A DNA stretch of 64,000 nucleotides from Antedon mediterranea (taxonomy: Eukaryota > Animalia > Echinodermata): the NCBI RefSeq assembly GCF_964355755.1, contig NC_092673.1:35709648-35773647 (forward strand), read 5' to 3'. Position numbers and translations under genes: made by a program. The notes under the pieces are model-generated. The model saw only the letters and a program-made list of their open reading frames with translations. It did no database searches and had not been told where the DNA came from. Within the stretch, counting starts at the first letter, position 1, and the number at the start of each line of letters is the position of its first letter. Positions 2,338 through 34,678 of the stretch are shown here, one piece after another.

Positions 2338-5300
2338 TTAACAGTTTGTATTTTCTAAAATCAAGGTTAGTTTATGAATTGGCCTTTCCAAATATGTTGC
2401 GCGTTTCAACCGTTTTCCATCATTATCGATATTTGTGTCTGCAACAATTAACCTAACTTTTCTCACTAGTCCGTCCTCACTTGGCATTAATTCAGATATT
2501 CTGGCCAATTTCCAGTCTCCGCGTATCAAATGTTCTTCTTTTAGTAGTACTATGTCTCCTATCTCAAGGTTTCGGCGTACTTGGTTCCACTTAGCTCTCG
2601 ATTGAAGGTTGGTCAAATATTCCTTTTTCCATCTTGACCAAAATTCATTGGCCAGAAACTGAACTCGACGCCATCTTCTTAATGCATATACGTCTTCCTT
2701 GACAAAGAACCCAGGCGGTGGAAAAACGATTTTCGATTTCATTGTGAGTAGCTGGTTCGGAGTTAAGGCTTCGGGTCCATGTGGATCATTTAGATTTTCG
2801 GTTGTTAGAGGTCTACTATTGACGATAGCCATCGTTTCGTACAGGAATGTACGGAGAGACGTGCTATCTAATCTTGACTTGTATTGATTAAGAATGGAAT
2901 AGAGAACGTTACGGATTGTTCTTATTTGTCTTTCCCAAATGCCTCCCATATGACTGGCGGAAGGAACATTAGAAAAGAAGTTACAGTTTTGATCTGCTAG
3001 GAACTTTCGCACCTTATCTTCTTTAATCTCCTTAAAGGCCTTTGTGAGCTCATGTTGTGCTCCCATAAAGTTACTGCCTTGATCACAACGAAATTGACGA
3101 ACATTGCCACGTATAGCAATGAAGCATCTAAGAGCGTTGATAAAGGCGTCTGTTGTCATGTCGTCGAGCATCTCTATATGAATGGCTCTTGATGCCATAC
3201 ATGTGAATAACAATCCATACCTTTTTAATTCTCTTCTTCCCTCCTTAACCAAAAATGGTCCAAAACAGTCAAACCCAGTATATGTAAACGGAGGGGTTGG
3301 TTCCAATCTTTCATTTGGTAAGTTTGCCATTTTTTGGTCTTGATTACGCCCACGTAATTTTCTGCATTGAACACACTTGTAGATATGGCTTGATACAGCT
3401 GAACTTATTCCAACTATCCAAAATCCATTGGATCTAACTGCATTGGTCGTAAAGCCTCTTCCTTGATGGGCTGTTTTCTCATGGTAGTGTTTAATTATTA
3501 AATGTGTTACATGGCTTCTTTTTGGCAATATTGCAGGATGTTTAACACCCATATCTAGAGAGGTGGCTCGTTTCAGGCGACCACCAACTCGCAGTAATCC
3601 GTCAACATCTATGTACGGGTCTAACTTCGCAAGATTGCCTGTGCACTTGGAAGATTGCTTGTAGAGTTGGTCGATGTCTTTTTTGAAGAACTTATGTTGG
3701 ACCATTTTGATGATGGTCTTTTCAGCTTCGATTCTGTCTTCTACAGAGGTAATGGTATAATGATTTTTGGTTTTTCTTGTTTTGATGAATTTCTTAAGAG
3801 CGGCAACTCCTGTAACTGCTCTCTTATAATCGGAAAAACGTTCTACACGATTTAGCAAGCAATTTTCTTCAGTGGAATTTATCGCAAGCACGCTAGCTTG
3901 GTTTACTTCCGGATCGTTGGAAGATACGTCAAATTTTTGATTATTTTCCACTATATTTCCGCATTTCCAAAGGAGTTTTGGTCCTTGAAACCAGTTGGAT
4001 GTCTGTAAGTCCTTTGCTCCAAGACCTCTTGAAGCATGGTCGGCTGGATTCTCATTCGTAGATATGTAGTTCCATTGTTCAGGATTTGTGGTATCTCTAA
4101 TGCGTTGGACGCGATTAGCTACGTACACATGGAAACGTCTGGCTTCGTTTCTGACATAACCAAGTACTACCTTCGAGTCAGTCCAGAAGTAGTGTGCTGA
4201 ATTTTTATATTCTAGTTCTTGATATAGAATGGTACTGACTTTTGTTGACAACACCGCGGCTTGTAGCTCTAATCTTGGAATACTAACAACCTTTTTGGGT
4301 GCCACTCGGGCCTTTGCCATTATCAGCGCACAGTGAATCTCAGAGAAGTCATTTTCAAGTCTTATATACGAGCACTGCCCATAACCAGAATTACTTGCGT
4401 CGGAAAAGTGATGAAATTCGACCTTTCTTTGTTGGAAATCTTTTGGTTTGAAGCACCTATTAATCGTAATGGTGGCAAGCTTTGGAAGGTCTAATCTCCA
4501 TTTCTCCCATTTTGGACGAAGCTCCTCGGAAAGTTTTTCGTCCCAGTCTGTTCCCTCCTTGCACACTTCTTGCAGTATTTGCTTACCCTTGAGTGTAAAT
4601 GGGGCAAGAAGTCCAAGTGGGTCGAAAATTGATGCTACAGTGGATAGAATTCCTCGGCGTGTCAATGGAGTGTCTTTCATGGTGATTCTAAATTGAAAGT
4701 TATCTGACTCGACGCACCATTGTATTCCAAGGGCCCTTTCAACTGGTAAGTCTTCGAATGATAGGTCTCGATCTACGGTTCCTTTAGCCTGTTCTGATTT
4801 TGGGATGGTAGACATAACGTCTCGTTGGTTGGAAATAAATTTATGTAGTCTAAGTGAGCCCTTTGCACACAGTTTTCTGGCATCTTCTATTAATTCAACT
4901 GCTTCAGGTACAGTTTCTACGCTCTTTAGACCATCGTCTACATAAAAGTTGTTCTTAATGAAGTTAACTGTCTCTGGTTTGTGTTGTTCGGCAAAGTGTT
5001 CCGCCATGTATTTTAGTCCGAAATTAGAGCAACCTGGTGAGGAAGCGGCTCCAAACAAGTGGACCTTCATTCTGTAATCTATGGGTTGCCTTTCGAGATT
5101 TCCATCTTCCCACCACAAGAAGCGTAGATAGTTTCTGTCATTCTGGTTAACATGAAACTGGTGAAACATCCTCTCTATATCACACATTATGGCTATGGGT
5201 TCTTGTCTAAATCTGCATAGTACACCTATGAGTGTGTTGTTTAGGTCTGGTCCAGTAAGAAGATGTTGATTCAAGGCTGTACCTTTGTAGTTAGCGGAGC

Positions 5301-8300
5301 AGTCAAAGACAACACGAATTTTGGTGGGTTTCTTAGGGTGGTAAATTCCGTGATGAGGTATGTACCATGCTGGCTCTTTTTGTATTTCATTTGCTGGTAC
5401 TTTCTCGGCATCTCCATTTTGAAGTATTTCTGTCATAAATTTTTGATAATCTTCAAAGTACTTCTCATTCGTCAGGAAACGTCGTTTTAGGTGGTTCAAT
5501 CGATGCAGTACACAAATTCTGTTATTCGGTAATACTGGCCTCTTTTTAAAGGGTAATGGCATTTCGATATGTCGGTCTTCATTGATATGGACTTCCTTTT
5601 TTAGAGTATCCATAAACTGCATGTCTTCTTGAGAGAGAACTGTGTCTCTTGTAACTTTCTCCGTGAAGTCGTACTCCAAGGCTCTTATTGCATCTAATGG
5701 AGTAACTATTTCTTTAACAGCTGTTTTTAAGACATAGTGAACTTCTTTGGTTGGTTCCGATTTCAAATTAGATTCGTACGTTAAGTGTAGATCGTTTGGA
5801 ATTTCCTTCACCATTACTCTATGACTGTGACCGATTTTATCTTGAGGAACATAAGATGTCTCAGCTCCTCCTCCTACAACACTCCAACCCAATTGAGTTT
5901 TGATAGCGAATGGTTCATTTCCATTTCCTGAAATATGGTCTATGGGTGCCAGAGCCTGTGGAACGTTATACCCAATAAGCAACCCTATTTCACAGTTTTG
6001 TCTAGATGGTATCTGTTGACTTATCCTTTGTAGATGAGCATAACATCTCGTCTTTTCGGGTGTAGGAATATGTGATTGGTCAACTGGTATGTATTCTCTA
6101 GTATATGCCGTTGGTAGCTGAATTTTTGTTTCTTCAAAGAAACCTCTAATCATTAGGTTGTTATACTTCTTGCAAGATACGACTTCCCTTTTAGACGTCA
6201 TCGTAGTCAATCTTAGTGTTGCTGGTTCGCAACTTGCACCAATTTGGTTTGCAGTATCTTCTAGCACAAAGGTTGTGTCGGATTGTGTGTCTAATAGGGC
6301 ATATACAAGATGTTCCTTTTCAGGTTTATGTTCATTGGATATCCAGACGGGAACTATCATTGAAGACATTGTGTTGTTTGTGTTTCTGCGGACATTTTTG
6401 CAGTTTGAAGTCTTTACTGATTTTACCACTTCAGACTTAGCGTCACCATTCAGCCGAGTCTCGGCGTCAATCTCGTTAGCCTGATCTCTCTCCTTTACAT
6501 TTGAAGTCTTTACTGATTGTACTACTTCAGACTTAGCGTCAACATTCGGCTGTGTCGCGGCGTCAATCTCGTTAGCCGGATCTCTCTCCTTTACATGGAG
6601 ACTTGTTGGATGTCTCCTTTGGCAAATTTTACAAATACTTTTCTGGTTACAGTTCCTTGACACATGGCCATGTTGTAAGCAGCTGAAACATAGACCATTT
6701 TGCTTGATGTATTGCTGTTTTTCGGTATCGGGTTTTCTGGCAAACGCTCTGCAGTCAATTAGGTGATGGTTATTCATTTTACACATGAAGCATGATGGCA
6801 TTCCACTGATACTGGTGGCTAGCGTTTGAGATTGGTTTCGATATCTTGAACTTTTCTCTGTGAATTTTGTTTCATTTTCTGGTATTAAGGTAACAGGATC
6901 GCAAACAATTTCAGCTTCGGTCGTCAAAAATGTGGAAAAGTCATTGAATGTTGGATAACTACCCTTGATTTGCATAGCGCTCACTGCGTTTCTTCGCCAT
7001 CTATTCACTAACCAATCTGGTAATTTTTGAAGAATTTTCCGGTTTTCTCTGCTGTCATTAAGAACTTCCAAGCCTTTCATTTCTCTCATTGCTATGTTGC
7101 ATTGGTTCAGAAAGTCAGAGAGTCGCCTAAGGCCATTGTAATCTCTTGCTTGAATCCTTGGCCAGCTGTCTAATTTGTCTCTAAATGCTTCGGAAACTAT
7201 AAATGGATTTCCATATCTTTTTTCTAAAACTGCTTTAGCGTTTTCATAAGCATGTTCACCTTGTAGCAGAAAGTATCCACTGACAACTTCCTTTGCTGGG
7301 CCTCCTATGTATCTCTTAAGGTAGTGAATTCTGTCTTCCTTAGAAATTCCTTTATTTTCGATTAAACATCTAAAGGATGCGTTCCAATCATAGTACTTAA
7401 GAGGATCGCCATCAAATATTGGTGGCTCTGGTGCTGGTATGCGGTTCATACTGAAGGCTGAAGAAAAGGCTTCTGCTAAAGCGTTTAAGTCTGTGGTACT
7501 GCTAGATTGATTTTGAGGCATTGTCGATTGGGCTGTTGTTGCTTGTGTCTGTGTCATTAGAGGTTGAGGTTTGGTTAGGTTGCGAAACCTTAGTGCATGA
7601 TCATTTGAGGTTTGGTGTGGGGTGGTCATAATTTCTCCATATCCGTTCTGAATTTCCTGTTGAATTGCATCAACTCGTGCATTCTCTACAGCTGCAGCTT
7701 GTTTAGCCTCTAAAACTTTGAACTCTGCTTCAGCTTTGGCATGTTCTGTTCTTTGCTGTGCTTCCCGCCTTATTTCTTCAAGCCTTGCTTCTGCTTTCTT
7801 AATTTCCATTTCCGCTTCCTTTGCTGTAAGGTCTGCTTTCTGTTTAGCCATTTTTTCAGCAAATTGAGCAGTTTTGTTGGCTGCAGCAGCATTCGCCACA
7901 GCTTGAGCTTTAATGCTAACAATAGATCGACATGAACTCCTTGATGCTGCAGATTTTGAGGCTTGACACTCCAGGGCTAATGCATGTGCCCTATCCATAG
8001 CGCTTGTTATACTAGCTTGGATGGAGTTGGTAATGGTGAGATATATGTTCTCATTCTCCAGGTGATCTTTGCGATGAATACCATCTCTATCTTGTGCATA
8101 CAATTTATTCAATACGCACCAAGCATCACTATATTCCTTTAATGCAGCTTTAGCTTTGCATAATGCAGTTTGTATCTCAAATTCGTCGCTTGGAACATCT
8201 TCTAGTTCACTTGATGCTTCTTGAGCCTTTCTCTGAGTTTGAGTCAACAGCTTTACTTCAGTAGCAATGCTAATTGACAGGGCCTTAGCTGTAGGGCGTC

Positions 8301-8373
8301 TCTCACTCTGTTCTCTTAGATTCATTGAGTTTTCATCAGCTAAGTTTTCACTGTTACCGTAGGCGTCCATCAT
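2338..8373 (-). CDS. BEL/Pao Gag-Pol polyprotein (Gag with three Cys/His knuckles, aspartic protease, RT, RNase H, integrase)
   Basis: 2011-aa ORF: knuckles CFMC..H..C, CFSC..H..C, CKIC..H..H; protease LLDTQS; RT FYVDD; RNase H FSDAS/WTDS; integrase HHCC zinc finger plus DCFGP, DQGSNF, WERQIR. Confidence 0.96.
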   Translation of the reverse strand: MMDAYGNSENLADENSMNLREQSERRPTAKALSISIATEVKLLTQTQRKAQEASSELEDVPSDEFEIQTALCKAKAALKEYSDAWCVLNKLYAQDRDGIHRKDHLENENIYLTITNSIQASITSAMDRAHALALECQASKSAASRSSCRSIVSIKAQAVANAAAANKTAQFAEKMAKQKADLTAKEAEMEIKKAEARLEEIRREAQQRTEHAKAEAEFKVLEAKQAAAVENARVDAIQQEIQNGYGEIMTTPHQTSNDHALRFRNLTKPQPLMTQTQATTAQSTMPQNQSSSTTDLNALAEAFSSAFSMNRIPAPEPPIFDGDPLKYYDWNASFRCLIENKGISKEDRIHYLKRYIGGPAKEVVSGYFLLQGEHAYENAKAVLEKRYGNPFIVSEAFRDKLDSWPRIQARDYNGLRRLSDFLNQCNIAMREMKGLEVLNDSRENRKILQKLPDWLVNRWRRNAVSAMQIKGSYPTFNDFSTFLTTEAEIVCDPVTLIPENETKFTEKSSRYRNQSQTLATSISGMPSCFMCKMNNHHLIDCRAFARKPDTEKQQYIKQNGLCFSCLQHGHVSRNCNQKSICKICQRRHPTSLHVKERDPANEIDAATQPNVDAKSEVVQSVKTSNVKERDQANEIDAETRLNGDAKSEVVKSVKTSNCKNVRRNTNNTMSSMIVPVWISNEHKPEKEHLVYALLDTQSDTTFVLEDTANQIGASCEPATLRLTTMTSKREVVSCKKYNNLMIRGFFEETKIQLPTAYTREYIPVDQSHIPTPEKTRCYAHLQRISQQIPSRQNCEIGLLIGYNVPQALAPIDHISGNGNEPFAIKTQLGWSVVGGGAETSYVPQDKIGHSHRVMVKEIPNDLHLTYESNLKSEPTKEVHYVLKTAVKEIVTPLDAIRALEYDFTEKVTRDTVLSQEDMQFMDTLKKEVHINEDRHIEMPLPFKKRPVLPNNRICVLHRLNHLKRRFLTNEKYFEDYQKFMTEILQNGDAEKVPANEIQKEPAWYIPHHGIYHPKKPTKIRVVFDCSANYKGTALNQHLLTGPDLNNTLIGVLCRFRQEPIAIMCDIERMFHQFHVNQNDRNYLRFLWWEDGNLERQPIDYRMKVHLFGAASSPGCSNFGLKYMAEHFAEQHKPETVNFIKNNFYVDDGLKSVETVPEAVELIEDARKLCAKGSLRLHKFISNQRDVMSTIPKSEQAKGTVDRDLSFEDLPVERALGIQWCVESDNFQFRITMKDTPLTRRGILSTVASIFDPLGLLAPFTLKGKQILQEVCKEGTDWDEKLSEELRPKWEKWRLDLPKLATITINRCFKPKDFQQRKVEFHHFSDASNSGYGQCSYIRLENDFSEIHCALIMAKARVAPKKVVSIPRLELQAAVLSTKVSTILYQELEYKNSAHYFWTDSKVVLGYVRNEARRFHVYVANRVQRIRDTTNPEQWNYISTNENPADHASRGLGAKDLQTSNWFQGPKLLWKCGNIVENNQKFDVSSNDPEVNQASVLAINSTEENCLLNRVERFSDYKRAVTGVAALKKFIKTRKTKNHYTITSVEDRIEAEKTIIKMVQHKFFKKDIDQLYKQSSKCTGNLAKLDPYIDVDGLLRVGGRLKRATSLDMGVKHPAILPKRSHVTHLIIKHYHEKTAHQGRGFTTNAVRSNGFWIVGISSAVSSHIYKCVQCRKLRGRNQDQKMANLPNERLEPTPPFTYTGFDCFGPFLVKEGRRELKRYGLLFTCMASRAIHIEMLDDMTTDAFINALRCFIAIRGNVRQFRCDQGSNFMGAQHELTKAFKEIKEDKVRKFLADQNCNFFSNVPSASHMGGIWERQIRTIRNVLYSILNQYKSRLDSTSLRTFLYETMAIVNSRPLTTENLNDPHGPEALTPNQLLTMKSKIVFPPPGFFVKEDVYALRRWRRVQFLANEFWSRWKKEYLTNLQSRAKWNQVRRNLEIGDIVLLKEEHLIRGDWKLARISELMPSEDGLVRKVRLIVADTNIDNDGKRLKRATYLERPIHKLTLILENTNC

Positions 8374-8842
8374 AAATAAATTACAAATTTTGTAGATACT
8401 GATGTTCCTTTATTTATTCTCTGAACTATCTCTTGTATCTCTACAAATTACAGTATCATTAGCAACTTGAATAAACACCGTGAAAACTATAATAAAACAA
8501 AGATTAGCATTACAATGTAGGCCTAATCATATCATCATCGTACAGGCAGACAAGCACAGGTCTGACTCATGGGGCCGGGGAACATGGTACCCTAAGGCCT
8601 AGGGCTAGCTCTCAGCAATGAAGTAAAACTCAACTAATTAAAAATACAAGTCATAAGTTATAATTACAATCACATGAATAACCATGTGTAAATACCTTGT
8701 AGCCTTATTGGAGCCTATGGTAAAGATACTTTTAACAATGATTATCTCTAAACTTTATGTCATAAAAAATGTCTTATTCTCTCTTATCACTTTTTATCTA
8801 TCTGAGCTCTAGAGGGCCTCCTGTAAGTAGGCTGCAGTTACA
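8352..8842 (-). repeat. 5' LTR of BEL element
   Basis: Direct repeat of 1730-2220; has AATAAA on the minus strand near 8410-8419. Confidence 0.95.
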
Positions 8843-9071
8843 CAGCATGCACACAGCGTACACTCAGTACAACGTACACGCAGTATACGACCAGCAGTGC
8901 AGCATGCACACAGCGTACAATCAGTACAACGTACACGCAGTATACAACCAGCAGTGCAGCATGCACACAGCGTACAATCAGTACACGCAGTATACGACCA
9001 GCAGTGCATGCACACAGCGTACACTCAGTTCAACGTACAACCCAGAGTATACGACCAGCAGTGCATGCACA
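8843..9071. repeat. Right part of the 54-bp minisatellite (about 4 units)
   Basis: Same unit as 848-1729, resuming in register after the TSD. Confidence 0.93.
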
Positions 9072-9558
9072 AAGCGCGCGTATCGGTATCAAAAGTATCC
9101 GGATGTTTTTTCAGGCGCCGTGCAACACCAAACAACAAGAATTGCCACACTAAGATTAATCACGGAGGATACCTCCATGGATTAAATCATTCATCAGCAA
9201 GGCTCGAGTAAACAAATGTAAAAATGTACACACAAGCCTCATCATTTATTGTGCATTAGGCAAACCATTAATCAACAGGGATTACTGCAGTATTCAACAC
9301 CATTTCCTAAGTAATTTTTTACGAGTTACATGCACATTATCTAAAACATTATCCCACATTCATTGACTCGAGAGTGTTCTATATGGTAATTCACTAAAAT
9401 GATGGACACCTTGATTAATGTATGGGAAGAAAACCTCTTACTAGTTTAAATTTGAATTTGCATAAACATATATGATGAAGTTGTTATATTATGATATTAA
9501 ATTTGGCTGTTATATAGTGCGAATAAAAATATCCTTTCTTTACTTCTTGTACACTTAA

Positions 9559-9826
9559 AGATGTATTGTACCCCCACATGGAAAATGAAGATTGATTAAA
9601 TCAGACGTTGTAGTTTTAATAAAGTTAATCACTTCCTTAAAAAAAAAATGGTTAAATTCAACCAAAAATTCATTTGCTGGCAGACAATTTGACTATTTTT
9701 TTGCTTTAAATTACATTTTTCATGTAATAATTTTGTTTGGGTCAAGATGGATAACAATTATGTGACATTAAAATGGCATATTTAACAACAAATGTTTAAT
9801 AATTTTTAAGGGGGACCATACATCTT
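9559..9826. mobile_element. TTAA-flanked MITE (Kolobok/piggyBac-like); related copies near 27540-27696 and 49082-49395
   Basis: Termini AGATGTATTGTACCCC and GGGGGACCATACATCT with TTAA on both sides; internal sequence recurs twice in the window. Confidence 0.6.
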
Positions 9827-9877
9827 TTAAAGCATAGCTACAGCCATGACTTTCAGATATAATATTTGTGTACATAA

Positions 9878-10150
9878 AGGGTAGTTCCCACTAGCAACGC
9901 AACGTAACGCAACGATAATTGTGTTTGCCCCCACCTACGTGAAACCAAATCTGCGATGTTTGCAGCACTATTGCGTCGTCGGTTCCCACTTGTGATTACG
10001 CAATACAGCACTTTGCGTCAAAACGTCGCTGTGTTGCGTTGCGTCGCTAGAGTAGCTGATGTTGCGTCGCGACGCGTCGTTGTGTCGCTGACGTTGCGTC
10101 GCTAGTTGGAACCACGCTTCCTTCTTGCGTTGCGTCTAAGTGGGAACCAA
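9878..10150. mobile_element. MITE family A related copy (GTTCCCACTAG termini)
   Basis: gttcccactagcaacgcaacg ... cgttgcgtcgctagttggaaccacgct with an extra terminus; a decayed relative lies near 605-726. Confidence 0.65.
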
Positions 10151-10728
10151 ACATTAGCCTATCATCTGGCCTATCATTCTGCGCGTGTAAAGTATGAATA
10201 CATTATGAAGCGATTTAATAAAGCGCTTTAGGTAACATTTTAATTATTCGCATGAATACATTGTTTTCCTGTATCATTATCATAACCTTGATTCGCCTTA
10301 CTGAAAGCCTACTTGAAGTTTTTGTATTGTAATTGATTATTCAAATTTTCTATAAACTTTTAATTAAGATACCAGAGATTGAAATGACATGTTGCATAAT
10401 GACGATGTTGATTTAAAAATTGTTGTATAAATAAAGTAGGCGTATAAGTAGTAAGAGGCGAATGGCCACAATAAAACTAAAACCCGACTTGTTTTAATAA
10501 TTCTTGTTGGTCTTTTAGCGCTGTGAGACATCAGTAAACAGCGCTTTGTACATTATTATTATTATTAGGCCTACTAATTATGAGTCAATTTTAAATCAAG
10601 TTGGTTGACAGGTGGTTGTAGTGGAGATGGAAGAAGTTGAGAGGTGTGGGGGGGGGGGGGGGGGGGGGACGTTTCGGGGAGATATTATGCCCCTCATTTA
10701 TTCTAGGTTTATTATTAACTCAAACACA

Positions 10729-11712
10729 CTATGCATTTAGGCCTATATTCCTCAGTTCTACAACTTGACTACTTTGATTTTCTCCTAACTTAAAATAGTT
10801 AAGTAAGGTTGTCTTGATATTGTTAGTAAATACAATGTACAAATACGGATTAATAGCAGAGTTTAAATATCCTAACCAAGTGAGTCCAAAAAAAACGTTT
10901 AAGTTGATATATACACCTGGGAGATGCGCAATCAAGTTATTCACAGTGAAGTAAGGCAACCAACAAAGGACAAAACAACCCACGATAATACCGATGGTGA
11001 TGGCTGCTTTATTTTCACGCCTTCGTGCCTGATGCAAACACGATGACGTCACAGCATTTATAGCATTTATCTTCTTTGATTGTATCTTTGCTTCGTTGTA
11101 TAACTTGTAGTATAGCGTACATATTATGATAAGCGAAAAATAAAACGTAAAAAATGCGGAAAGAATAGAGTAAATTATGTTATAAATCAAATAACACGTG
11201 CCCTCTGGTCTTGTGTAATTTCGTGGACGGTCGAGTTTGAGACCGACTGGGATTCCCGCCCAACAAGATGACGTCAACCAGATGCAGACGATTAAAGTGC
11301 AAATAACACGTTTTGACATTTTGGAGGAGTAGTAAAATGGCCATTTAATGGATACGAACCGAACACCAGCGATGGTACAAAGGGTGAACATCGAGGCTGT
11401 ACACGACACAAAGTCTGTCATTAACCACACCTCACAAAATATCGAACCCCATTTCCAGATACCAGAAAAATAATAGTCGATTGAGAAAGGCATAACGATC
11501 GCAGACACAATCATATCAGCCACAGATAAGTTCAAAACGAGTATATTTTGATGATTATGCAAATGTTTGTTTACGACAACTACAATAATTAGAACAGCAT
11601 TACCCGCTATCGATACGCAAGCAATACAAGATAATAAAACAGCAATATATATGTTAATAGTTGGCTCATTTGAATGCATCGAGTCGTCGGATGATAAATT
11701 TGACGGAGTCAT
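10729..11712 (-). CDS. Class A aminergic GPCR, divergent (histamine H2 / beta-octopamine / TAAR-like orphan), single coding exon
   Basis: 327 aa, seven TM segments: GN, LSVAD, TM3 Asp (TDFVSCTAS), CWLPYF, WLGYLNSAINPYLY. DRY position reads VRF. Confidence 0.9.
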   Translation of the reverse strand: MTPSNLSSDDSMHSNEPTINIYIAVLLSCIACVSIAGNAVLIIVVVVNKHLHNHQNILVLNLSVADMIVSAIVMPFSIDYYFSGIWKWGSIFCEVWLMTDFVSCTASMFTLCTIAGVRFVSIKWPFYYSSKMSKRVICTLIVCIWLTSSCWAGIPVGLKLDRPRNYTRPEGTCYLIYNIIYSILSAFFTFYFSLIIICTLYYKLYNEAKIQSKKINAINAVTSSCLHQARRRENKAAITIGIIVGCFVLCWLPYFTVNNLIAHLPGVYINLNVFFGLTWLGYLNSAINPYLYIVFTNNIKTTLLNYFKLGENQSSQVVELRNIGLNA

Positions 11713-12572
11713 GACATAACTTTCCTCGTTAATCCACTCTTTGAAGTCTCTGCACTTAAATAAATCTAAATGAAGCTTGTTGAATCTAAATTTGAATCTG
11801 TAAAAGAGAAAGATTTAATGAAGAGAGGTAATGCCTCTCGTCTTCTCTTTGTCAAGATTGTACAGATCACTCTTATAAACCTGATACATCTCGCCATATA
11901 CAAATACGTTTATTGTAATACACAAGAAGTGACCTAAATAATAATATTACAGCACAATTCTGAACAGAAATTCACTTACATGAATCAACTAACACAGACT
12001 CTCCTCAAGTGAACAAAAATGTCTAAGACGGCAAGAAGACGAATATGCAAGCCTAAACAAACGGCGGCGGTTAACGTAATCTATTTAAACTAATCAACGA
12101 ATGCGGCAATTTATATCTAAAACAGGACTATTCCATTATGTATACATTTATTTAGGTCTAGAAATGATGTATATTGTACGGTACACCGTAACAAAAGATG
12201 GATGATGTCGTGCGCAGATTCCGTCATTCACTTCCGAATGTGTGACATCAATTATCTATTTACTTAATTGAAAGGGCGATACGACTTTAATTAAGTAAGT
12301 ACCTGATATTTTACGGTATTGTAGTGTACTTATTATTTTTACATTTATTAAACAACACATTAAACATTTAGTACATACTTAAATTTGCATTTATGATCTC
12401 CATAAGCAAAACAAAAATATATATAAATCTTCGTGTTGGTGGTGTGATATTCTGAAATTAATCAACTTCGATGATGTAATGCTACACTATACCATAGCAA
12501 CAATGTCGGGTCATCAATGATCACTAATGTTAATATAATTGATGAGCTGTTTTATCAAATTCAATTTTTTGT

Positions 12573-12810
12573 AGTGGAGCTGTAGCTTGGTGGTTAACGT
12601 GCTTGCCTTCCAATCCCAATGTCCCGGGTTCAATCCTGACCTAGTGCAGGGTTGTAACTCATGACTCTTTCAACTCCACTCCCTAAGCCTCAAATGAGAC
12701 TTAGTTTATAAGCACGATAAATTATTAAATAGTTTATCCATCCTGTAATTGGCGAGTTACTCGCTGTTGGATGAGTATGAAATAAAAAAAATAAAAAAAA
12801 ATAAAAAAAA
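12573..12810 (+). mobile_element. tRNA-derived SINE family 1 (Gly-TCC-like head)
   Basis: A-box tagcttggtgg, loop gccttccaa, B-box ggttcaatcc, unique body, A-rich tail; copies at about 43296-43566 (-) and 55112-55295 (-). Confidence 0.85.
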
Positions 12811-13808
12811 GTAAATTTATGGATAAAAAATCGATAAAGCGGTCAATTAATGATAATTTACTCATTCAACATTTGACCGACTTTGCTTCGTGTTCAGCAA
12901 AAGAGAAAGTTTGGGTTCCAGACGGAGTTTTGACTTAATATTAGTAAAAAGATAAATAGTTTTGCACATATGGTGTTTCATACGTATACTACGTTTCTCC
13001 AGACAAAAATCGAAACGTCGACAAGTGAACTAACATAAAAAAGACAATAAATACAGGCAAGTCTACAGCAGAGACTGCATCTATGCCGCCATTTTATACG
13101 GATATGCACAGTGATCATGTTAATCAGTATATGCCATAATAAATTAGAATAAAATGATTGTATTAGTAATTTATTTACAAAACAAACAATCACACATACA
13201 TCAAACATGTTATAGACCCGGGAAACTCAAACAGCAAACTTTTGATGGGACGTCTCAGTCTACTACCTATAAAGTTATCCGACGGAACTAAATTTTGGTA
13301 GGCCGCTAATTTCCACGTTTGAATTTGACAACAAGTAAACACATGGCATGGTACACTCGCTCGACCGACTTGCAAACCGGTATAGTCTACGTGCATGAGC
13401 GATTTATCGTCAAAGAGCAAAAGCAAAGGCCAAGTAGTCAATTCGTCACTTGGACTATTTTATTTAAAATTGCATTTCAAACATACCATATCTTTCCTTC
13501 GTCTTCTTCGTTTTTAACGGCTAAAAGGACGTCGTCTGTTGCATGCTCACTGGTTCTTTTGCAACTAAGAAGCATACCGTATTGATTACGTAATATGCTA
13601 GTGTTCTTATGTAAAGAATTTGTGACGTAGTACTCTAATAAGCAACTGTATTTATTTCAAAATAAAACATTGTATTGTATAAACAGAGAGAAACGGAATT
13701 AAGCTGTCTAGGATGTGACGTAACGACGTGGCGCAACGCAACTAGGTTGGCCAATAATCACTTCAAATGATCCGTGTCATTATTGGTCAAATTGCTTGCG
13801 TTGAGCTT

Positions 13809-14042
13809 AAGCTTGGTTCCCACTAGGGACGCAACGCAAGGACGTAACGCAACGTAAGTGATTTGACCAATCACAAGCGATGGATTATTCCAACAGTAGC
13901 TTGTCATTGATCAATTCACTTGCGTTGCGCGTACGTCCGGCTTTGCGTAGCGAGCTAGTGGGAGCCGCCGGCCACGCTTTAGGCCTACGTCCTTGCCTTG
14001 CGCGTACGTCATTGCGTTGCATATCTTGTGGGAACCACGCTT
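13809..14042. mobile_element. MITE family A, palindromic, Harbinger/PIF-like
   Basis: TIR AGCTTGGTTCCCACTAG with long internal palindrome (gacgcaacgcaagg...gaccaatcacaagcga...); about ten copies in the window. Confidence 0.8.
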
Positions 14043-14366
14043 CACACTGTCGGCGTCACTATATTTTATGTCACACAATTATATTTATAATAATATTATC
14101 TGTAATTAGCACCGTCCTTGTCGTCAATAAATAATAACATCGTTGTCACCATCGGCGTTTACTATCGATGTCTTTCCTGTATCGTCGTCACTGTCATCAT
14201 ACCACACATGACCATTCTTCATTTTTATTACGTCATTGTCATGGACAATTATAATTCTTACGGGTTTTACTATTTTTCTTGCTTGGCAATATCAACTAAT
14301 AAATATATTTACAAATGTGTTTTTGAGTATAAATGTTTCTGAAAGTGAATAATGCTGGATGAATTA

Positions 14367-17300
14367 TCAAACAAAGTAACTGCCTCTACGTGTTATCTTT
14401 GAGTCGTCTATAGTTTCGACAAATACGCTTATATGCGTAGATGGCGCACTCGGTCTCCGACCACATTGTTTCAAAGGTTTTGAAGATCTCGTCTGAAGAA
14501 AATGATTATAAATCCTTGTACTTTCCTCAAAAAATCGATCCATGTTTTGTAAATTATTGATAAACGAACATTCATCATCATCATCATCATCGCTACAATC
14601 AATATTATCGCTTACAGAGGCATTACGTAATACTATGTTTTTGGAAAATTCTTCTTGATTTGTATTTCTGGATTTATGGTGATCTTGCTCATCAGTTAGT
14701 GACCGGTCTATTTCTTGTTCAAGTATATCTTGTAGAATGTTATTATCACGACGTTCGTCGATACCTCGTCGTCGCCTCGACATCTTTCGGCTGCTGGCAA
14801 TTGGTTCTAACTGCACGTTATTGTTCATATTGTTGTTATGGTTTCGACACTTTGCAGGAGATATAATCGGTGAATCGGTACCGCTAACTGATGTGTATCT
14901 ATTAATGTTGCTAAGATAACGTAAGTCTCTTTGTTGCCTGCTGGCTTTACTACATCGACACGTCAGAAGTCTTCTAAACGCGTTCCGGAACGCTTTGTTC
15001 GAATAAGCGTATATGAAAGGATTTAAGAAACTGTTGCAATATCCAAGCCACACACACGTTTGGAACACAGTCACAGACACACATGACGCACAAATTTTAC
15101 CTGAAGAAAAAAAACCCAGTAATCATGTTATTAATAATGACAAAACAACGTATTTTTCAGCGGTTACCTAACACATTTAATAGTGTGCTTGTTACTTGTT
15201 TGGATATTTATTTTGTTATGATAGTTTAAATGTATTTAAGGGTAAAGTTGTTAAATCTCTATAATGTTCCAATCTTTGTTTATGTTATTGTTGCTTATTT
15301 GAATGTATTATTATAGTTTATTATGTTTTTAGATTCAACATGTTAGTGGCGGTTTGATCGTTGTTGGTTGTCAACTGAATAAAATAAAACAGTACTGTAG
15401 TAGTCAGATATAACCTGCACTTAGGAAGGTCTACACTATCAAACTAGTTTGCCAAAAAAGTGCGATGTGCCCAAATATTGTAGTGATATTCCCAAATACG
15501 ATAGTGATATGACATCATCATGTCCGTATATGGGCAAATCACATTTGTTAAAGTTTGATAGTGTAGACAGAGCGTTTAGTAGTGTTACCCGAAGGCCCTA
15601 CAATATCTTCCTGTCTGTTTTACTTTATCGTTTAGTAGTGTTACCCGAAGGCCCTACAATATCTTCCTGTCTGTTTTACTTTATCGTTTAGTAGTGTTAT
15701 CCGAAGGCCCTACAATATCTTCCTGTCTGTTTTACTTTATCGTTTAGTAGTGTTACCCGAAGGCCCTACAATATCTTCCTGTCTGTTTTACTTTATCGTT
15801 TAGTAGTGTTACCCGAAGGCCCTACAATATCTTCCTGTCTGTTTTACTTTATCGTTTAGTAGTGTTACCCGAAGGCTCTACAATATCTTCCTGTCTGTTT
15901 TACTTTATCGTTTAGTAGTGTTACCCGAAGGCCCTACAATATCTTCCTGTCTGTTTTACTTTATCGTTTAGTAGTGTTACCCGAAGGCCCTACAATATCT
16001 TCCTGTCTGTTTTACTTTATCGTTTAGTAGTGTTACCCGAAGGCTCTACAATATCTTCCTGTCTGTTTTACTTTATCGTTTAGTAGTGTTACCCGAAGGC
16101 TCTACAATATCTTCCTGTCTGTTTTACTTTATCGTTTAGTAGTGTTACCCGAAGGCCTTACAATATCTTCCTGTCTGTTTTACTTTATCGTTTAGTAGTG
16201 TTACCCGAAGGCCCTACAATATCTTCCTGTCTGTTTTACTTTATCGTTTAGTAGTGTTATCCGAAGGCCCTACAATATCTTCCTGTCTGTTTTACTTTAT
16301 CGTTTAGTAGTGTTACCCGAAGGCCCTACAATATCTTCCTGTCTGTTTTACTTTATCGTTTAGTAGTGTTACCCGAAGGCCCTACAATATCTTCCTGTCT
16401 GTTTTACTTTATCGTTTAGTAGTGTTACCCGAAGGCCCTAAAATATCTTCCTGTCTGTTTTACTTTATCGTTTAGTAGTGTTACCCGAAGGCCCTACAAT
16501 ATCTTCCTGTCTGTTTTACTTTATCGTTTAGTAGTGTTATCCGAAGGCCCTACAATATCTTCCTGTCTGTTTTACTTTATCGTTTAGTAGTGTTACCCGA
16601 AGGCCCTACAATATCTTCCTGTCTGTTTTACTTTATCGTTTAGTAGTGTTACCCGAAGGCCCTACAATATCTTCCTGTCTGTTTTACTTTATCGTTTAGT
16701 AGTGTTACCCGAAGGCCCTACAATATCTTCCTGTCTGTTTTACTTTATCGTTTAGTAGTGTTACCCGAAGGCCCTACAATATCTTCCTGTCTGTTTTACT
16801 TTATCGTTTAGTAGTGTTACCCGAAGGCCCTACAATATCTTCCTGTCTGTTTTACTTTATCGTTTAGTAGTGTTACCCGAAGGCCCTACAATATCTTCCT
16901 GTCTGTTTTACTTTATCGTTTAGTAGTGTTACCCGAAGGCCCTACAATATCTTCCTGTCTGTTTTACTTTATCGTTTAGTAGTGTTACCCGAAGGCCCTA
17001 CAATATCTTCCTGTCTGTTTTACTTTATCGTTTAGTAGTGTTACCCGAAGGCCCTACAATATCTTCCTGTCTGTTTTACTTTATCGTTTAGTAGTGTTAT
17101 CCGAAGGCCCTACAATATCTTCCTGTCTGTTTTACTTTATCGTTTAGTAGTGTTACCCGAAGGCCCTACAATATCTTCCTGTCTGTTTTACTTTATCGTT
17201 TAGTAGTGTTACCCGAAGGCCCTACAATATCTTCCTGTCTGTTTTACTTTATCGTTTAGTAGTGTTACCCGAAGGCCCTACAATATCTTCCTGTCTGTTT

Positions 17301-20300
17301 TACTTTATCGTTTAGTAGTGTTACCCGAAGGCCCTACAATATCTTCCTGTCTGTTTTACTTTATCGTTTAGTAGTGTTATCCGAAGGCCCTACAATATCT
17401 TCCTGTCTGTTTTACTTTATCGTTTAGTAGTGTTACCCGAAGGCCCTACAATATCTTCCTGTCTGTTTTACTTTATCGTTTAGTAGTGTTACCCGAAGGC
17501 CCTACAATATCTTCCTGTCTGTTTTACTTTATCGTTTAGTAGTGTTACCCGAAGGCCCTACAATATCTTCCTGTCTGTTTTACTTTATCGTTTAGTAGTG
17601 TTACCCGAAGGCCCTACAATATCTTCCTGTCTGTTTTACTTTATCGTTTAGTAGTGTTACCCGAAGGCCCTACAATATCTTCCTGTCTGTTTTACTTTAT
17701 CGTTTAGTAGTGTTACCCGAAGGCCCTACAATATCTTCCTGTCTGTTTTACTTTATCGTTTAGTAGTGTTACCCGAAGGCCCTACAATATCTTCCTGTCT
17801 GTTTTACTTTATCGTTTAGTAGTGTTACCCGAAGGCCCTACAATATCTTCCTGTCTGTTTTACTTTATCGTTTAGTAGTGTTACCCGAAGGCCCTACAAT
17901 ATCTTCCTGTCTGTTTTACTTTATCGTTTAGTAGTGTTACCCGAAGGCCCTACAATATCTTCCTGTCTGTTTTACTTTATCGTTTAGTAGTGTTACCCGA
18001 AGGCCCTACAATATCTTCCTGTCTGTTTTACTTTATCGTTTAGTAGTGTTACCCGAAGGCCCTACAATATCTTCCTGTCTGTTTTACTTTATCGTTTAGT
18101 AGTGTTACCCGAAGGCCCTACAATATCTTCCTGTCTGTTTTACTTTATCGTTTAGTAGTGTTACCCGAAGGCCCTACAATATCTTCCTGTCTGTTTTACT
18201 TTATCGTTTAGTAGTGTTACCCGAAGGCCCTACAATATCTTCCTGTCTGTTTTACTTTATCGTTTAGTAGTGTTACCCGAAGGCCCTACAATATCTTCCT
18301 GTCTGTTTTACTTTATCGTTTAGTAGTGTTACCCGAAGGCCCTACAATATCTTCCTGTCTGTTTTACTTTATCGTTTAGTAGTGTTACCCGAAGGCCCTA
18401 CAATATCTTCCTGTCTGTTTTACTTTATCGTTTAGTAGTGTTACCCGAAGGCCCTACAATATCTTCCTGTCTGTTTTACTTTATCGTTTAGTAGTGTTAC
18501 CCGAAGGCCCTACAATATCTTCCTGTCTGTTTTACTTTATCGTTTAGTAGTGTTACCCGAAGGCCCTACAATATCTTCCTGTCTGTTTTACTTTATCGTT
18601 TAGTAGTGTTACCCGAAGGCCCTACAATATCTTCCTGTCTGTTTTACTTTATCGTTTAGTAGTGTTACCCGAAGGCCCTACAATATCTTCCTGTCTGTTT
18701 TACTTTATCGTTTAGTAGTGTTACCCGAAGGCCCTACAATATCTTCCTGTCTGTTTTACTTTATCGTTTAGTAGTGTTACCCGAAGGCCCTACAATATCT
18801 TCCTGTCTGTTTTACTTTATCGTTTAGTAGTGTTACCCGAAGGCCCTACAATATCTTCCTGTCTGTTTTACTTTATCGTTTAGTAGTGTTACCCGAAGGC
18901 CCTACAATATCTTCCTGTCTGTTTTACTTTATCGTTTAGTAGTGTTACCCGAAGGCCCTACAATATCTTCCTGTCTGTTTTACTTTATCGTTTAGTAGTG
19001 TTATCCGAAGGCCCTACAATATCTTCCTGTCTGTTTTACTTTATCGTTTAGTAGTGTTACCCGAAGGCCCTACAATATCTTCCTGTCTGTTTTACTTTAT
19101 CGTTTAGTAGTGTTACCCGAAGGCCCTACAATATCTTCCTGTCTGTTTTACTTTATCGTTTAGTAGTGTTACCCGAAAGCCCTACAATATCTTCTTGTCT
19201 GTTTTACTTTATCGTTTAGTAGTGTTACCCGAAGGCCCTACAATATCTTCCTGTCTGTTTTACTTTATCGTTTAGTAGTGTTACCCGAAGGCCCTACAAT
19301 ATCTTCCTGTCTGTTTTACTTAGAATCTAGAATTTTGCTTATTTTATTTATCACCGACATAATTGTCATTTTTTCCAGTAATTTGACTTTTGATTTAATA
19401 AAAAAATAACCTGTTATTAGTACAGTATAGTATACTGACTTTTACGAGAACCCGATTTCCTCATACAATCCCCATTGAGTATTATAATAACAAAGAATGA
19501 TTATATTAACGCGTACATAGACATTCCATTCACAGGACGCGGTCGATGACGTGATAAAATTTGATTATTTTTTTTTAAATTGACATAAGATATTGCACTT
19601 TAATGATGTTTGACAACATTACAAATTAATTACAGTATTAACACAGATAAACTTCGAAACATTATTGTCAAACATTAATTGATATTTATATGTATTTAAA
19701 AATTGATTAGAGATTGAAATAAAAAAAAAAACTTACTAAAAGGAAAGACAAAGAAAAACGGGAACCAGCAGACTATGAAACCACCGATAACAAGTCCAAG
19801 CGTCTTTGCTGCCCTCTTTTGACGGTTAAACGTTGCAACTTTTTGAGAGAAACTTAACTTAGCTGCTGCCTTGTGATTGGCTGAAATACTGACATGAATC
19901 CTTAAAGTAACGGTGTTAGCGCCCTCACTAGTAATCACTGAAGTTTTGTAGCCAGCTTTGAGTCCTTCATTTTGTATAGCGACTTCACGGTAAATCCGAT
20001 AGTATATTATAAGGACGATGACTAGCGGTATGTAAAACGAACAAGATGTTGAAAATAGGACATAGTCGACGGAATCGGACATAGGACATTGGTTAGGATC
20101 GTCTAGCGTTGGCCTCCAACCAAACAAAGGCCCGCTTGCCACGGCGAACGAACACATCCAACTAATTCCAATCGTGAATAACGCTTTCTTTTTTGTCATT
20201 ATTAAATGATGCTTCAACGGGATTGTTACACCAATGTATCGGTCTATACCAATACAACATAATCCATATATAGAAGCAGTACAACATAATACATCTGTGG

Positions 20301-20601
20301 CCGCCCATATTAAACAGAAGTTTTCACCAAACACCCATTGTCCCATTATTTGGTAACTTCCGGCGAAAGGTATGACAATTACGCCAAGGAGCAAGTCTGC
20401 CACGGCGAGGTTGACAATGAAATAACTAGTTACGGTTCGCAACGATTTATCTGTTGTAACAGCTAACAAAATCAGAATATTACCAATCACAATCAATACA
20501 TTTACTGATAACAACCCGACTATCTTGCAAATCATACCTGCGTCCACTTCATAAAAGGTCGAATTTGGAGCGGTCGTCGAGTTCAGCGGCTTAACCATCA
20601 T
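14367..20601 (-). CDS. Alpha-1 adrenergic receptor-like GPCR; coding exons 20601-19737 and 15100-14367
   Basis: WAATDVLCCTASI..IGIDRYIGV, LRIH in ICL3, KRAAKTLG, CWFPFFFVFPF. Donor A|gtaag at 19736 and acceptor ttcttcag at 15101 join in phase 1 to SKICASCVSVTVFQTCVWLGYCNSFLNPFIY. A 5'UTR acceptor at 20684 implies an upstream exon. Confidence 0.9.
15428..15573. mobile_element. MITE family B copy (TCTACACTATCAAACT termini)
   Basis: gtctacactatcaaact ... agtttgatagtgtagacagagc; other copies near 22428, 35940-36058, 37143, 37947-38076, 54419-54569, 57032, 62268. Confidence 0.8.
15573..19322. repeat. Intronic satellite, 56-bp unit, about 67 near-identical copies
   Basis: Unit cgtttagtagtgttacccgaaggccctacaatatcttcctgtctgttttactttat, head to tail, no spacers, rare point variants. 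Confidence 0.98.
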
Positions 20602-20919
20602 GACAGGAGGAAAAGGAATTCCGAAGAAGGCGAATCGACATTTAAAAAAGTTAACACTGTGACGTCGGTCGACCCGGACATTTCTGAAAAACAAGCAATT
20701 AAATTGCAATGTTACAATTCTTAGGACCCAGTAAATTAATTAAATATTGCAACGACACACTCGTTAAGTGCAATCATTAATGAGTTATTTGAACTATGAA
20801 CTCCACCACGGCCATAACAAAGTTTAGATTTAAAATACTTTCTTTTGAATTTTGACGTCATACTAAATTCCAGTACTACAACTACACTGCTTCTGGTGGC
20901 AGGGTTTTAGTCAAAACGT

Positions 20920-29832: not shown

Positions 29833-30469
29833 CCATGAAGATTCCCAGTTCGTGTTTATATGAAATGTTTTATATGGTTATAATAACCTCTGTTGAAAGA
29901 TATTTGTAACACCACTAATAAATACAGTCAGCAGATCACATGTACGTGTAATCAACATGCAATAAATGCTTTAATTCTTGTAACTGTATTGATATTGGAT
30001 ACATCTTCTTCTGTCCTTGTTATATATACATACAATCATGCATATTTCAGGCTTTGGAAAAGGATAACATTTTCCCACCAAAACCAAACACTGTGATTGG
30101 TGTAACCAGGGAAGAGTTAAATTACATTTTAATTTAACTCTTCTCTGGTTAAACTTACATAGGAAATACTTCAGAGTCATCTTCTCTGATTATTTTAAAT
30201 GTAGCATTGTATTATTGGCCAACCCACTATCTCCTAGGCCTAGCAATCGCGACGAATCAGCACATCGTGACGCGTTTAGTGGGAACCGACAAGAAAAACT
30301 AATAGACGCATGACAATTCAACTTTCAAAGCGATCCGTCGAATGACGCGTGACGCATGACGCTTCGCGGCTTCGCGTTCGGTGTGCACAGGCCTTAAACT
30401 GAGATCCCGACGCGCACGCGCACCCTCATATCGGCGCCATCGTTTGGAGACGGCGTGCACCCGAACGAT

Positions 30470-31880
30470 CATGGAACGAAAATCACTTGCAATACAAGAA
30501 GATGTGCTGGAGATTTCTGCTGGAAATGTAACATTTGCAGCTACAACTCCACTTGTACAGCATACGGTGGCTAAGCCCACCAAAAAGGCCAGGAAGGCGG
30601 GGTCTAGCTGTACTATTACTAGGCCTCCTAAAGAAGGTAATACGCATAGCAACAGCGATGCCGTTGCTATCGCCGGGCAATCATGCACTAACGTGCTGCA
30701 GCCTAATCAACAGGTCGGAGTAGGCCTGAACTATGAGGCTAGGGTTGAAAACCTTGAGCGGTTGGTTGAGCAGCAGGTTAAAGAGACGAAGGCTGCTCAA
30801 CAAATAAATGAGTCAACGCACGACCTTTTATCTCAGTTGATGACACAAATGTCATCACAATGTCACAACAATGAATATGATGACATTGACAGTAGCTCGG
30901 TGGTTAGCCTCACGAGTAACATTTACGATAGGCATCATCAGTACGAACGTGATGTGTCTGACCTGGAGGAGGGGGAAGTAACAGGTACACAACTATCCAA
31001 GAAGGATGAAAATCCTGAGCGGCCAGCCACTAATAGTAATAGTAAGGTCAAAGGCCCCCTTCCTCCGGGTTTTGCAGCAAGATTTGCTGTTTCTAACGAA
31101 TTGGCACCAGCAGTCAGCCAAGAGTTGGCTGACACGCTAACATACTTATTGCACTCGCATATGAGTGAGAGTGTAATGACCGAGCTGATCAAAAGCTATC
31201 CTATACCGGAAAATCTAGAGGCCCTAATGGTGCCAAAGGTCAATCCAACTATTTGGGATTCCATTACACCAAGGGCACGGTCTAACGATCTAAAATTTCA
31301 AAAGGTACAAAAACCTTTGATAAAGGGAATTACCGCCCTTGCAAAATTAGTTGATGGAAATGAGTCATCGGAGATAGCACAGGACACAATCGGCCTACTT
31401 GCCAATGCGAACTTCGAGTTACTTGCACTTCGTAAGGAGATGTTGAAACCGGAAATAAATGCCAAATATACTCATTTATGTAAACCCAGCATTAAGCCTA
31501 CAGAGTATTTATTTGGTGACCTGAGTACTACAGTTAAAAAACTGGATGAGGAAAGGAAGGCTACGGCAGGCTTATTTAATTTTAAGTCGTACCAACCAAA
31601 GACCAGGTCCAACAACTACAGATACCAGCCATACAATAGAAATGGCAAACCTTTTTTAGGTCAAACCCGGCGACACAAATGGTCAACAAACAACTACAAC
31701 CAGACCAAATTTTATCAGGGGAAAAAGGACCTAAAACAACAGCCGAAGAGGTATGAGTCGATTGATAATATAAGTATTTCTCCTAACAATAAGGTTAACA
31801 AACATAATAACCTTGACATAGTAGGAGGTCGACTCAGGTCATATATACATAAAAATATACTTCGGATCCATACATCCTAA
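30470..31880 (+). CDS. DIRS Gag-like ORF1, reading on into the Pol N-terminal VGGRL motif
   Basis: First ATG inside the element is at 30470; PENL..L.VPKVNPTIW, DLKFQKVQ, YLFGDL and PFLG are typical of animal DIRS ORF1. Confidence 0.8.
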
Positions 31881-33728: not shown

Positions 33729-34678
33729 GCAATACTGCAGCAGACGTCATTCTGCAATCCTGGAGACGGTCAACGTGGAAGCAATATAACTCACAGCTAA
33801 CAAAATTTATAGACTTTTGTGAAATCAGAGGAATCACATGGCAACAGCTAAACACCGGTCACGTCCTCGATTTCTTGATAAAGCTGAAGGACGAGGGCTT
33901 AGGCTACAGTACTATCAGTACGGCGAAAAGCGCAATTGTAAACTTTCTCGAAATCTTAGATATAAACATGAAGGAGTCTATTGAACTGAAACGATTTATG
34001 AAAGGGTTATTCAATTTTAACCCACCGACTCCAAAATATGCACAAATTTGGGATGTTCGCTTAGTTACAGACTATCTGAGGCGAACAATTAACGACGATA
34101 CATTATCGCTTAAAGAATTTACCATAAAAGTAGCATTGTTATTAGCATTATTGTCCTCAAGTAGGCTTCAAACCTTATATAATTTCAAATTTTCAAATAT
34201 GAATATCGAGAATGAAGCAATCACCTTTTACATTTGTACATTACTAAAAACTAGCAGACCAAACAATACAGGTCAACTGGTGGTTTTCCACAAAAGTGAA
34301 GACCCTGCCCTATGTCCGGTCAGAACAATTCTAAAGTACAGGGAAAAAACTAATAATTTAAAGGAAAATAAGGACAGATTTTTTATATGTCATAAGAAAC
34401 CGTATGCCGAGGCATCAAAAGACACAATTGCTCGATGGATAAGGACAGGTTTATCAGAAGCAGGAGTAGATACAACAAAATTTAAAGCCCATTCGGTCCG
34501 AGCGGCTGCATCTTCATCAGCAAAATTAAGGAATGTCCCGGTTGACTTAATAATGAAAACAGCTGGGTGGAGAAACGAACATACACTAAACAGATATTAT
34601 AATAAGCCTATAAAATTTGTAGAAAATCCGTCATTTCAACAGGCACTGTTGAGAAAAGTTGATTCATCAACTCATTAA
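33680..34678 (+). CDS. DIRS tyrosine recombinase; open frame with no ATG ahead of its N-terminal domain
   Basis: Frame opens after TAA at 33677-33679: ILQSWRRSTWKQY, catalytic R (SSRLQ), K (LKTSRP), HSVR, AGW, RYY. Confidence 0.9.
   Translation, partial: PFCLQAIRAELYNKGISNTAADVILQSWRRSTWKQYNSQLTKFIDFCEIRGITWQQLNTGHVLDFLIKLKDEGLGYSTISTAKSAIVNFLEILDINMKESIELKRFMKGLFNFNPPTPKYAQIWDVRLVTDYLRRTINDDTLSLKEFTIKVALLLALLSSSRLQTLYNFKFSNMNIENEAITFYICTLLKTSRPNNTGQLVVFHKSEDPALCPVRTILKYREKTNNLKENKDRFFICHKKPYAEASKDTIARWIRTGLSEAGVDTTKFKAHSVRAAASSSAKLRNVPVDLIMKTAGWRNEHTLNRYYNKPIKFVENPSFQQALLRKVDSSTH

Follow-up and report, generated by a model that had tools for sequence, protein, structure and literature searches.

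A BEL/Pao retrotransposon of Antedon mediterranea with its spliced 5′ leader as the likely primer of reverse transcription

A BEL/Pao retrotransposon on the reverse strand of the window (i.e., the whole 64,000-nucleotide stretch of Antedon mediterranea DNA analyzed here) has no tRNA-type primer-binding site (PBS) and likely uses a spliced leader from the 5′ end of its RNA as the primer for reverse transcription, a reading to which we assign a probability of roughly 0.8. We also consider it reasonably probable that, in a widespread branch of BEL/Pao elements in aquatic animals, the tRNA primer has been replaced by a spliceosome-assembled, two-exon leader of approximately 37 nt, which would form a pseudoknot clamping the terminal CA of the LTR from either side. 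The 5′ copy alone would have to be spliced and the 3′ copy would have to escape, so that on the same reading host splicing would gate both reverse transcription and the inheritance of the intron.

Anatomy and classification of the element

The 491-bp 5′ LTR (TG...CA; 8352–8842, − strand) is 100% identical to the 3′ LTR (1730–2220, −), which also bears the intron described below. The limits of both LTRs were confirmed by loose ends from other insertions in the run contigs at positions 8352, 8842, 1730, and 2220, the flanks of these insertions diverging at either end. The element splits a 54–57-nt satellite (846–1726 and 8843–9065), within which it is flanked by a 5-bp target-site duplication, TGCTG (8843–8847, with the second copy at 1725–1729). 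The PBS and the polypurine tract (2221–2236, −), the latter adjoining the TG of the 3′ LTR, each touch the LTR with zero spacer, and two overlapping AATAAA polyadenylation signals (8418–8413 and 8414–8409) occupy positions 8409–8418 (−). A single, uninterrupted gag-pol ORF of 1995 amino acids (2338–8325, −) starts at the first ATG past the LTR. Motif inspection revealed three Cys-His knuckles, PR, RT, RNase H, and IN in that order, and Pfam identified DUF1759, Peptidase_A17, and DUF5641, together with a weak match to Integrase_H2C2.

The Belpaoviridae (Semotivirus), whose replication is called poorly understood, are described as animal elements with LTRs of 0.2–1.2 kb, a gag-pol with PR-RT-RH-IN, a polypurine tract, and an 18-nt PBS for the 3′ end of tRNA-Arg or tRNA-Gly, with priming by host tRNA (PMC8742986). 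The present element shares the size range of the LTR pair, the TG..CA termini, the target-site duplication, the polypurine tract, the domain order, the Pao-type Pfam domains, and the animal host. It also has the triple Cys-His box, which is a hallmark of BEL/Pao Gag according to excerpts of PMC554778. In contrast to this profile, the PBSs of the element and its relatives start with GT and are specific to each family, that of the element beginning with GTG and not TGG. Judged by its proteins, the element is BEL/Pao, with the PBS as the one differing descriptive feature, and we kept the family name despite this mismatch because the assignment was made on protein grounds.

A 96-nt in-frame tandem duplication (32 amino acids) is present between the zinc knuckles and the protease (6404–6596). 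The contig depth of gag (6566–8381) was approximately 3-fold (run X2) to 8-fold (run X1) that of pol, and loose ends were seen at 6566 and 2354; this pattern is a hint that a deletion derivative retaining only gag is more abundant.

Primer-binding site and LTR intron

The initial annotation of this DNA proposed that the element has no tRNA PBS and may prime from a complement inside its own LTR. Both sequences were present as claimed: the LTR ends in GGTAACA and is followed directly by GTGAAAACT (8351–8343), with no TGG, and the 9-nt complement, AGTTTTCAC, lies at 8488–8480, 5′ of the AATAAA. The sequence directly 3′ of the LTR's CA reads GTGAAAACTTAGC, and the predicted PBS adjoining the CA comprises GTGAAAACTTAGCT (8338–8351, −). 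When the LTR was shuffled 5000 times with its dinucleotides preserved, the 9-nt complement arose by chance in 9 of the shuffles. ARAGORN found no tRNA genes in the window, and Rfam gave zero matches at positions 8200–8900.

The same annotation had remarked that the complement overlaps a 3′-splice-site-like sequence. This sequence behaves like a genuine acceptor: contigs join position 8486 to 8696, skipping 209 nt (8487–8695, −) that are bounded by GT and AG on the element strand and contain a branch-like CTAAT (8507–8503) and a pyrimidine tract. This joint occurred in contigs of runs X2, X4, and X5, and the joint 1864>2074 occurred in X2 and X3. Runs X2–X5 represent one sample and X1 another, and all of the evidence comes from contigs; the intron-skipping joint was absent from X1 and was thus seen in one of the two samples. 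Its shorter side comprises 28 letters at a likeness of 85–90, a range prone to false joints. The depth in X2 was 442 for the intron-less arm and 609 for the intron-holding arm, depth not being copy number. Because unique intergenic DNA (9000–15179) was evenly covered by X2, X4, and X5 (X2 depth 25–31), and X1 covered intergenic DNA likewise, we read the runs as DNA. The GT donor, branch-like motif, pyrimidine tract, AG, and precise removal, the last observed in the DNA-like runs of one sample, are those of a spliceosomal GT–AG intron, and such precise loss from DNA suggests that a spliced RNA was once reverse-transcribed. The intron-less copies are no proof of splicing in the 5′ LTR or of the start site, because our model derives them from splicing in the 3′ LTR.

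In the spliced RNA, the 3′ end of exon 1 (8696–8704, −), the predicted 5′ half of the primer, would pair with PBS positions 8–10 and, beyond a 2-nt bulge, form further pairs. The first 7 nt of exon 2 (TTTTCAC; 8480–8486, −), the predicted 3′ half, are the exact complement of PBS positions 1–7. The junction thereby matches the PBS in 10 perfect pairs, with an extension beyond the bulge. The annotation needs one correction: the AG of the 9-mer is the intron acceptor, which is replaced in the spliced RNA by the end of exon 1. Its side remark that splicing or cleavage could create the primer end touched on what turns out to be a central step, but in another form: by joining exon 1 to exon 2, splicing would supply the primer's 5′ half. 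The 3′ end would still need a cut after AC. The intron donor, exon 1, and the second helix described below did not feature in the annotation.

A TATA-like motif, [AT]TAAAG (8753–8758, −), lies 63 nt upstream of the donor, and the same motif was found at −52 to −72 from the donor in 9 of 12 families, against 0.9 expected for a pattern that was picked post hoc. If it is taken as a TATA box, transcription would start approximately 30 nt upstream of the donor, at the beginning of helix arm A.

Related elements and the pattern scan

An alignment search with gag identified 79 metagenome loci, of which 26 with <900 nt upstream of the gag anchor were left out; 53 loci and the window were scanned. In a quick gag-region tree of the window and the metagenome loci, the relatives shared 37–53% identity with the window gag region over the best piece. 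The scan pattern, which was refined during the work, consisted of an acceptor AG plus 5–8 nt whose exact complement stands just after an LTR-like end 40–300 nt downstream. This pattern, with the complement abutting the LTR end and beginning with GT, was found in 22 of the 54 loci, compared with 2 on the reverse strand and 1.3 ± 1.0 (maximum 4) in 50 shuffles, the 22 positive loci collapsing to fewer families. Two further loci, L004 and L012, were added by eye, each having an LTR followed by a PBS near the 3′ side of the contig. An LTR-pair search gave an independent right end of the LTR for no sequences other than the window, L011, and L025. The LTR pair of L035 turned out to be an internal repeat, and the candidate L061 was dropped because it is not an LTR end.

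Of the 32 pattern-negative loci, six had a homologous LTR end and 26 had no recognizable LTR end. The sequences of L001 and L047, both with homologous LTR ends, end early, and no primer was found within the 188 nt of L079. In L027/L032 and L042, the last base of the primer is A instead of C, and upstream of the anchor their reading frames stay open for just 18 and 105 nt. No TGG-type PBS was recognized by eye in 15 non-hit loci, which does not count as evidence because most of these contigs begin within the 5′ UTR. Scans of viral contigs found no relatives. In some LTRs, AATA or TAAA takes the place of the terminal ..CA, and the primer–PBS pairing is intact (L006:1943, L009:123, and L037:223; L012:4707).

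Pairing of the spliced junction with the PBS

The perfect pairing with the PBS was longer in the spliced than in the unspliced form in all 13 families compared (9–13 vs 6–10 nt); the donors for this comparison were chosen by hand, those of L020 and L025 in the second copy of the LTR. The 16 families listed had 12 different exon-2 primer halves, each matching its own PBS, and one further half was found in L043. The length of the exon-2 match varied among the families (5, 6, 7, or 8 nt), and the PBS followed. Within the clade L025/L028/L031 (support 100), compensatory substitutions were found, with TTTTGAC, TTTTTGAC, and TCTTGAC each tracking its own PBS. The covariation check across related BEL families that the initial annotation had called for thus revealed compensatory, family-specific changes between the LTR motif and the PBS, which support self-priming independent of tRNA. 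Neither in the related families nor with respect to the putative start near 8725 did any of the outcomes that the annotation had named as refuting turn up. The exon-2 match held in 16 of 16 families, a test that shows sequence diversity only and is largely circular, because the match itself located the sites.

In a semi-blind test, the G|GT donor with the best intron-side score let 3–6 bases of exon 1 pair with the PBS of the same family in 10 of 12 cases. The sum was 47, against 23.3 ± 3.9 when permuted (1 in 200,000 permutations), a count that, like that for the second helix below, overstates independence, because the families are related and are not independent units. The two misses were L007, in which the top score fell on a G|GT site other than the donor that pairs, and L019, for which a matching donor giving 12 nt of pairing was found 1321 nt upstream of the acceptor. 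The best pairing across all GT sites summed to 50, compared with 13–30 for 13 other dinucleotides, and the family left out of the semi-blind test (L006/10/36/38) showed 11 nt of pairing when spliced vs 9 nt when unspliced. A fully blind choice of donor, scored by base frequencies at intron positions +3 to +6, was not significant (p about 0.1), the real donor of the window ranking 7 of 17.

In four families, the A of the acceptor is unpaired and only the spliced form matches (L002, 11 vs 8 nt; L011, 11 vs 8; L012, 9 vs 7; L020, 10 vs 6). The mean duplex energy was −18.9 kcal/mol for the spliced and −12.6 kcal/mol for the unspliced form, the spliced form being better in 11 of 12 families. The base directly after the primer was G in 13 of 13 families, and in L036/L038 it was A. 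Two relatives, L018 and L075, look intron-less, with a contiguous primer, in L018 in both LTR copies; L018 is the sister (support 99) of the intron-holding L007 and retains both the primer and helix A contiguously. The LTR intron of L019 measures 1321 nt, compared with 90–289 nt in the other measurable families, and the LTR of L004 (L004:6700–7230) seems to contain either two introns or a cassette exon in the interval between its pairing splice sites.

A second helix between exon 1 and U5

The 5′ part of exon 1 (arm A; 8709–8723, −) is complementary to the last part of U5 (arm A′; 8354–8369, −), with a duplex energy of −19.1 kcal/mol, compared with a mean of −7.1 kcal/mol with the U5 ends of other families. 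Across 14 families, the summed energy of helix A was −246.8 for own pairs and −148.3 ± 13.3 for permuted pairs (0 of 100,000 permutations), and three control blocks in the same test were not significant. The family's own U5 was the best partner in 8 of the 14 families, with L004 and L075 weak, and in a 1.4-kb scan the donor of L019 coincided with the best-scoring helix A windows. In pseudoknot-free folding, the primer pairing was lost in several families when exon 1 was at least approximately 25 nt long, and was never favored in L020; the competing pairing was that of the 5′ part of exon 1 with the U5 end (8723–8709/8369–8354). The folding program cannot form both helices, because the order arm A, primer, arm A′, PBS constitutes a pseudoknot. 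By eye, the bases 3′ of the primer showed no consistent pairing with U5 across the families. Two in-frame ATGs lie within U5 (8373–8368, −), at the edge of arm A′, and the reading frame is open from inside the LTR.

Proposed mechanism

The model makes exact predictions for the window element. Transcription would start near 8725 in the 5′ LTR, approximately 30 nt upstream of the LTR intron, and host splicing of this cap-proximal intron would fuse exon 1 to exon 2 (junction 8696/8486), giving a leader of approximately 37 nt. The junction would pair with the PBS over 10 nt plus the bulged extension, and the 5′ part of the leader would pair with the last 16 nt of U5, so that the two helices would abut at the terminal CA of the LTR and resemble a pseudoknot. 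Cleavage just behind the last AC (8480/8479) would free a 3′-OH; by analogy with Tf1, this would probably be carried out by the element's RNase H, the motifs of which are present in the gag-pol ORF. Minus strong-stop DNA would extend no further than the cut before transferring to the short R region in the 3′ LTR. Since it would stop there, the 3′ LTR would be the source of exon 1 and the intron in the next copy: the intron would be retained if the 3′ LTR copy is unspliced and lost from both LTRs if it is spliced, which would explain why the intron has survived in distant families and why intron-less copies occur. In LTR elements generally, the primer is copied into the PBS during plus-strand synthesis, and we infer that such copying would enforce a perfect match across the junction.

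If this is true, a splice-made primer would constitute a third route besides tRNA and Tf1-type priming, and transposition would be tied to the host spliceosome and to the unequal splicing of two identical LTRs in one RNA. It would also explain the failure of PBS-finding pipelines on these elements and the persistence of an intron in the LTR through reverse transcription.

Alternative explanations

The unspliced 9-nt match begins exactly at the LTR end, L018 and L075 appear intron-less, and the unspliced duplex of L031 equals the spliced one in stability, all of which would fit plain Tf1-like self-priming, with a transcript starting at or near the A of the 9-mer, the 9-mer as the primer, and the intron incidental. 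We regard this as unlikely, given that the PBS and U5 covary with the end of exon 1 and helix A, at a distance of 210–240 nt upstream (in L019, 1.3 kb), that the acceptor's A is unpaired in the four families named above, and that an RNA beginning at the AG forms the pair with a probability of 0.16. The primer might instead act in trans, with a spliced leader from solo-LTR transcripts, or from transcripts polyadenylated early in the 5′ LTR, annealing to unspliced full-length RNA. Intron retention would be explained equally well, the LTR depth is far above the internal depth, and a poly(A) signal lies approximately 70 nt downstream of the acceptor; however, the cut after AC would be needed as well, and the tight covariation within families would arise more easily in cis, which makes this route quite improbable.

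The two helices could also serve the leader in regulation or packaging, for instance by hiding the in-frame AUGs at 8373–8368, with priming by a host RNA such as a tRNA half. The ICTV profile of the family, with its 18-nt tRNA-Arg/Gly PBS (PMC8742986), and the existence of half-tRNA priming in Copia lineages (excerpts of PMC6317226) would accord with such a scheme. It is nevertheless very improbable in view of the twelve exon-2 primer halves in 16 families and the one in L043, each with its own matching PBS, and of the pairing that stops exactly at the LTR boundary in every family, this boundary being set by the 3′ end of the primer. Finally, exon 1 released by the first splicing step could provide the 3′-OH with no RNase H cut, and exon 1 alone can indeed pair via helix A and PBS positions 8–13. 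This gives no reason why the first 5–8 nt of exon 2 should be the exact complement of PBS positions 1–8 in every family, and it would leave 7 extra bases past the LTR's CA; we find it hardly credible. Priming in cis by the cleaved, spliced leader remains our preferred reading.

Comparison with known systems

Self-priming has been described for Tf1/sushi, Tj1, Tcn1, and TAR (excerpts of PMC7175516, PMC4600332, and PMC6317226). According to the parts of PMC7175516 and PMC4600332 that concern them, Tf1, Tf2, Tj1, and the Tf1/sushi group of Ty3/gypsy have no tRNA PBS and instead have an LTR-internal complement of the PBS near the 5′ end of the RNA (approximately 11 nt in the Tf1 group), and an RNase H cut between bases 11 and 12 releases the Tf1 primer. 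The present element likewise has an LTR-internal complement, with compensatory change across families. In contrast to the Tf1 group, it belongs to another superfamily, its Pol not being that of a Ty3/gypsy chromovirus and its Pfam families being Pao-type, and its primer is split in the DNA by a GT–AG intron, as it is in 13 families. Whereas the Tf1 primer is the contiguous first ~11 nt of the mRNA, the predicted primer would lie approximately 20–37 nt inside the RNA, counted from the putative start, behind an arm that pairs with the U5 end. The element thus likely works like Tf1 but is not a member of the Tf1 group. For plant Tcn1 (gypsy) and TAR, Houba, and Osr-1 (copia), self-priming was similarly predicted from LTR–PBS complementarity, but these were found as contiguous complements of at least 10 bp, a criterion by which the split primer (6–10 nt unspliced) would mostly be missed (excerpts of PMC6317226).

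Self-priming or an LTR intron in BEL/Pao was not described in the literature that we searched; Repbase reports and subscription journals were outside its scope, and an earlier description is therefore possible. The Cer7 BEL elements of Caenorhabditis elegans encode a separate, tRNA-like primer RNA near their 3′ end and may not rely on host tRNA. The present element resembles Cer7 as a BEL/Pao element that may not rely on host tRNA and differs from it in the predicted spliced 5′ leader. A literature search for the element-encoded primer RNA of Cer7 returned nothing, and a term look-up found no passage on the PBS or tRNA in the main text of the BEL/Pao surveys PMC554778, PMC3118150, PMC6238403, and PMC8556966.

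Other features of the window

The window contains a DIRS-like element (30360–34678, +) with overlapping ORFs, an RT, a Dam-type N6-adenine methyltransferase domain, and a tyrosine recombinase. A cluster of rhodopsin-family GPCR ORFs is located on the − strand (10729–11814, 14367–15122, 19696–20739, and 58254–59420). Positions 15573–19321 are occupied by a very young tandem array, consisting of a 56-nt unit repeated 67 times with a 99% match.
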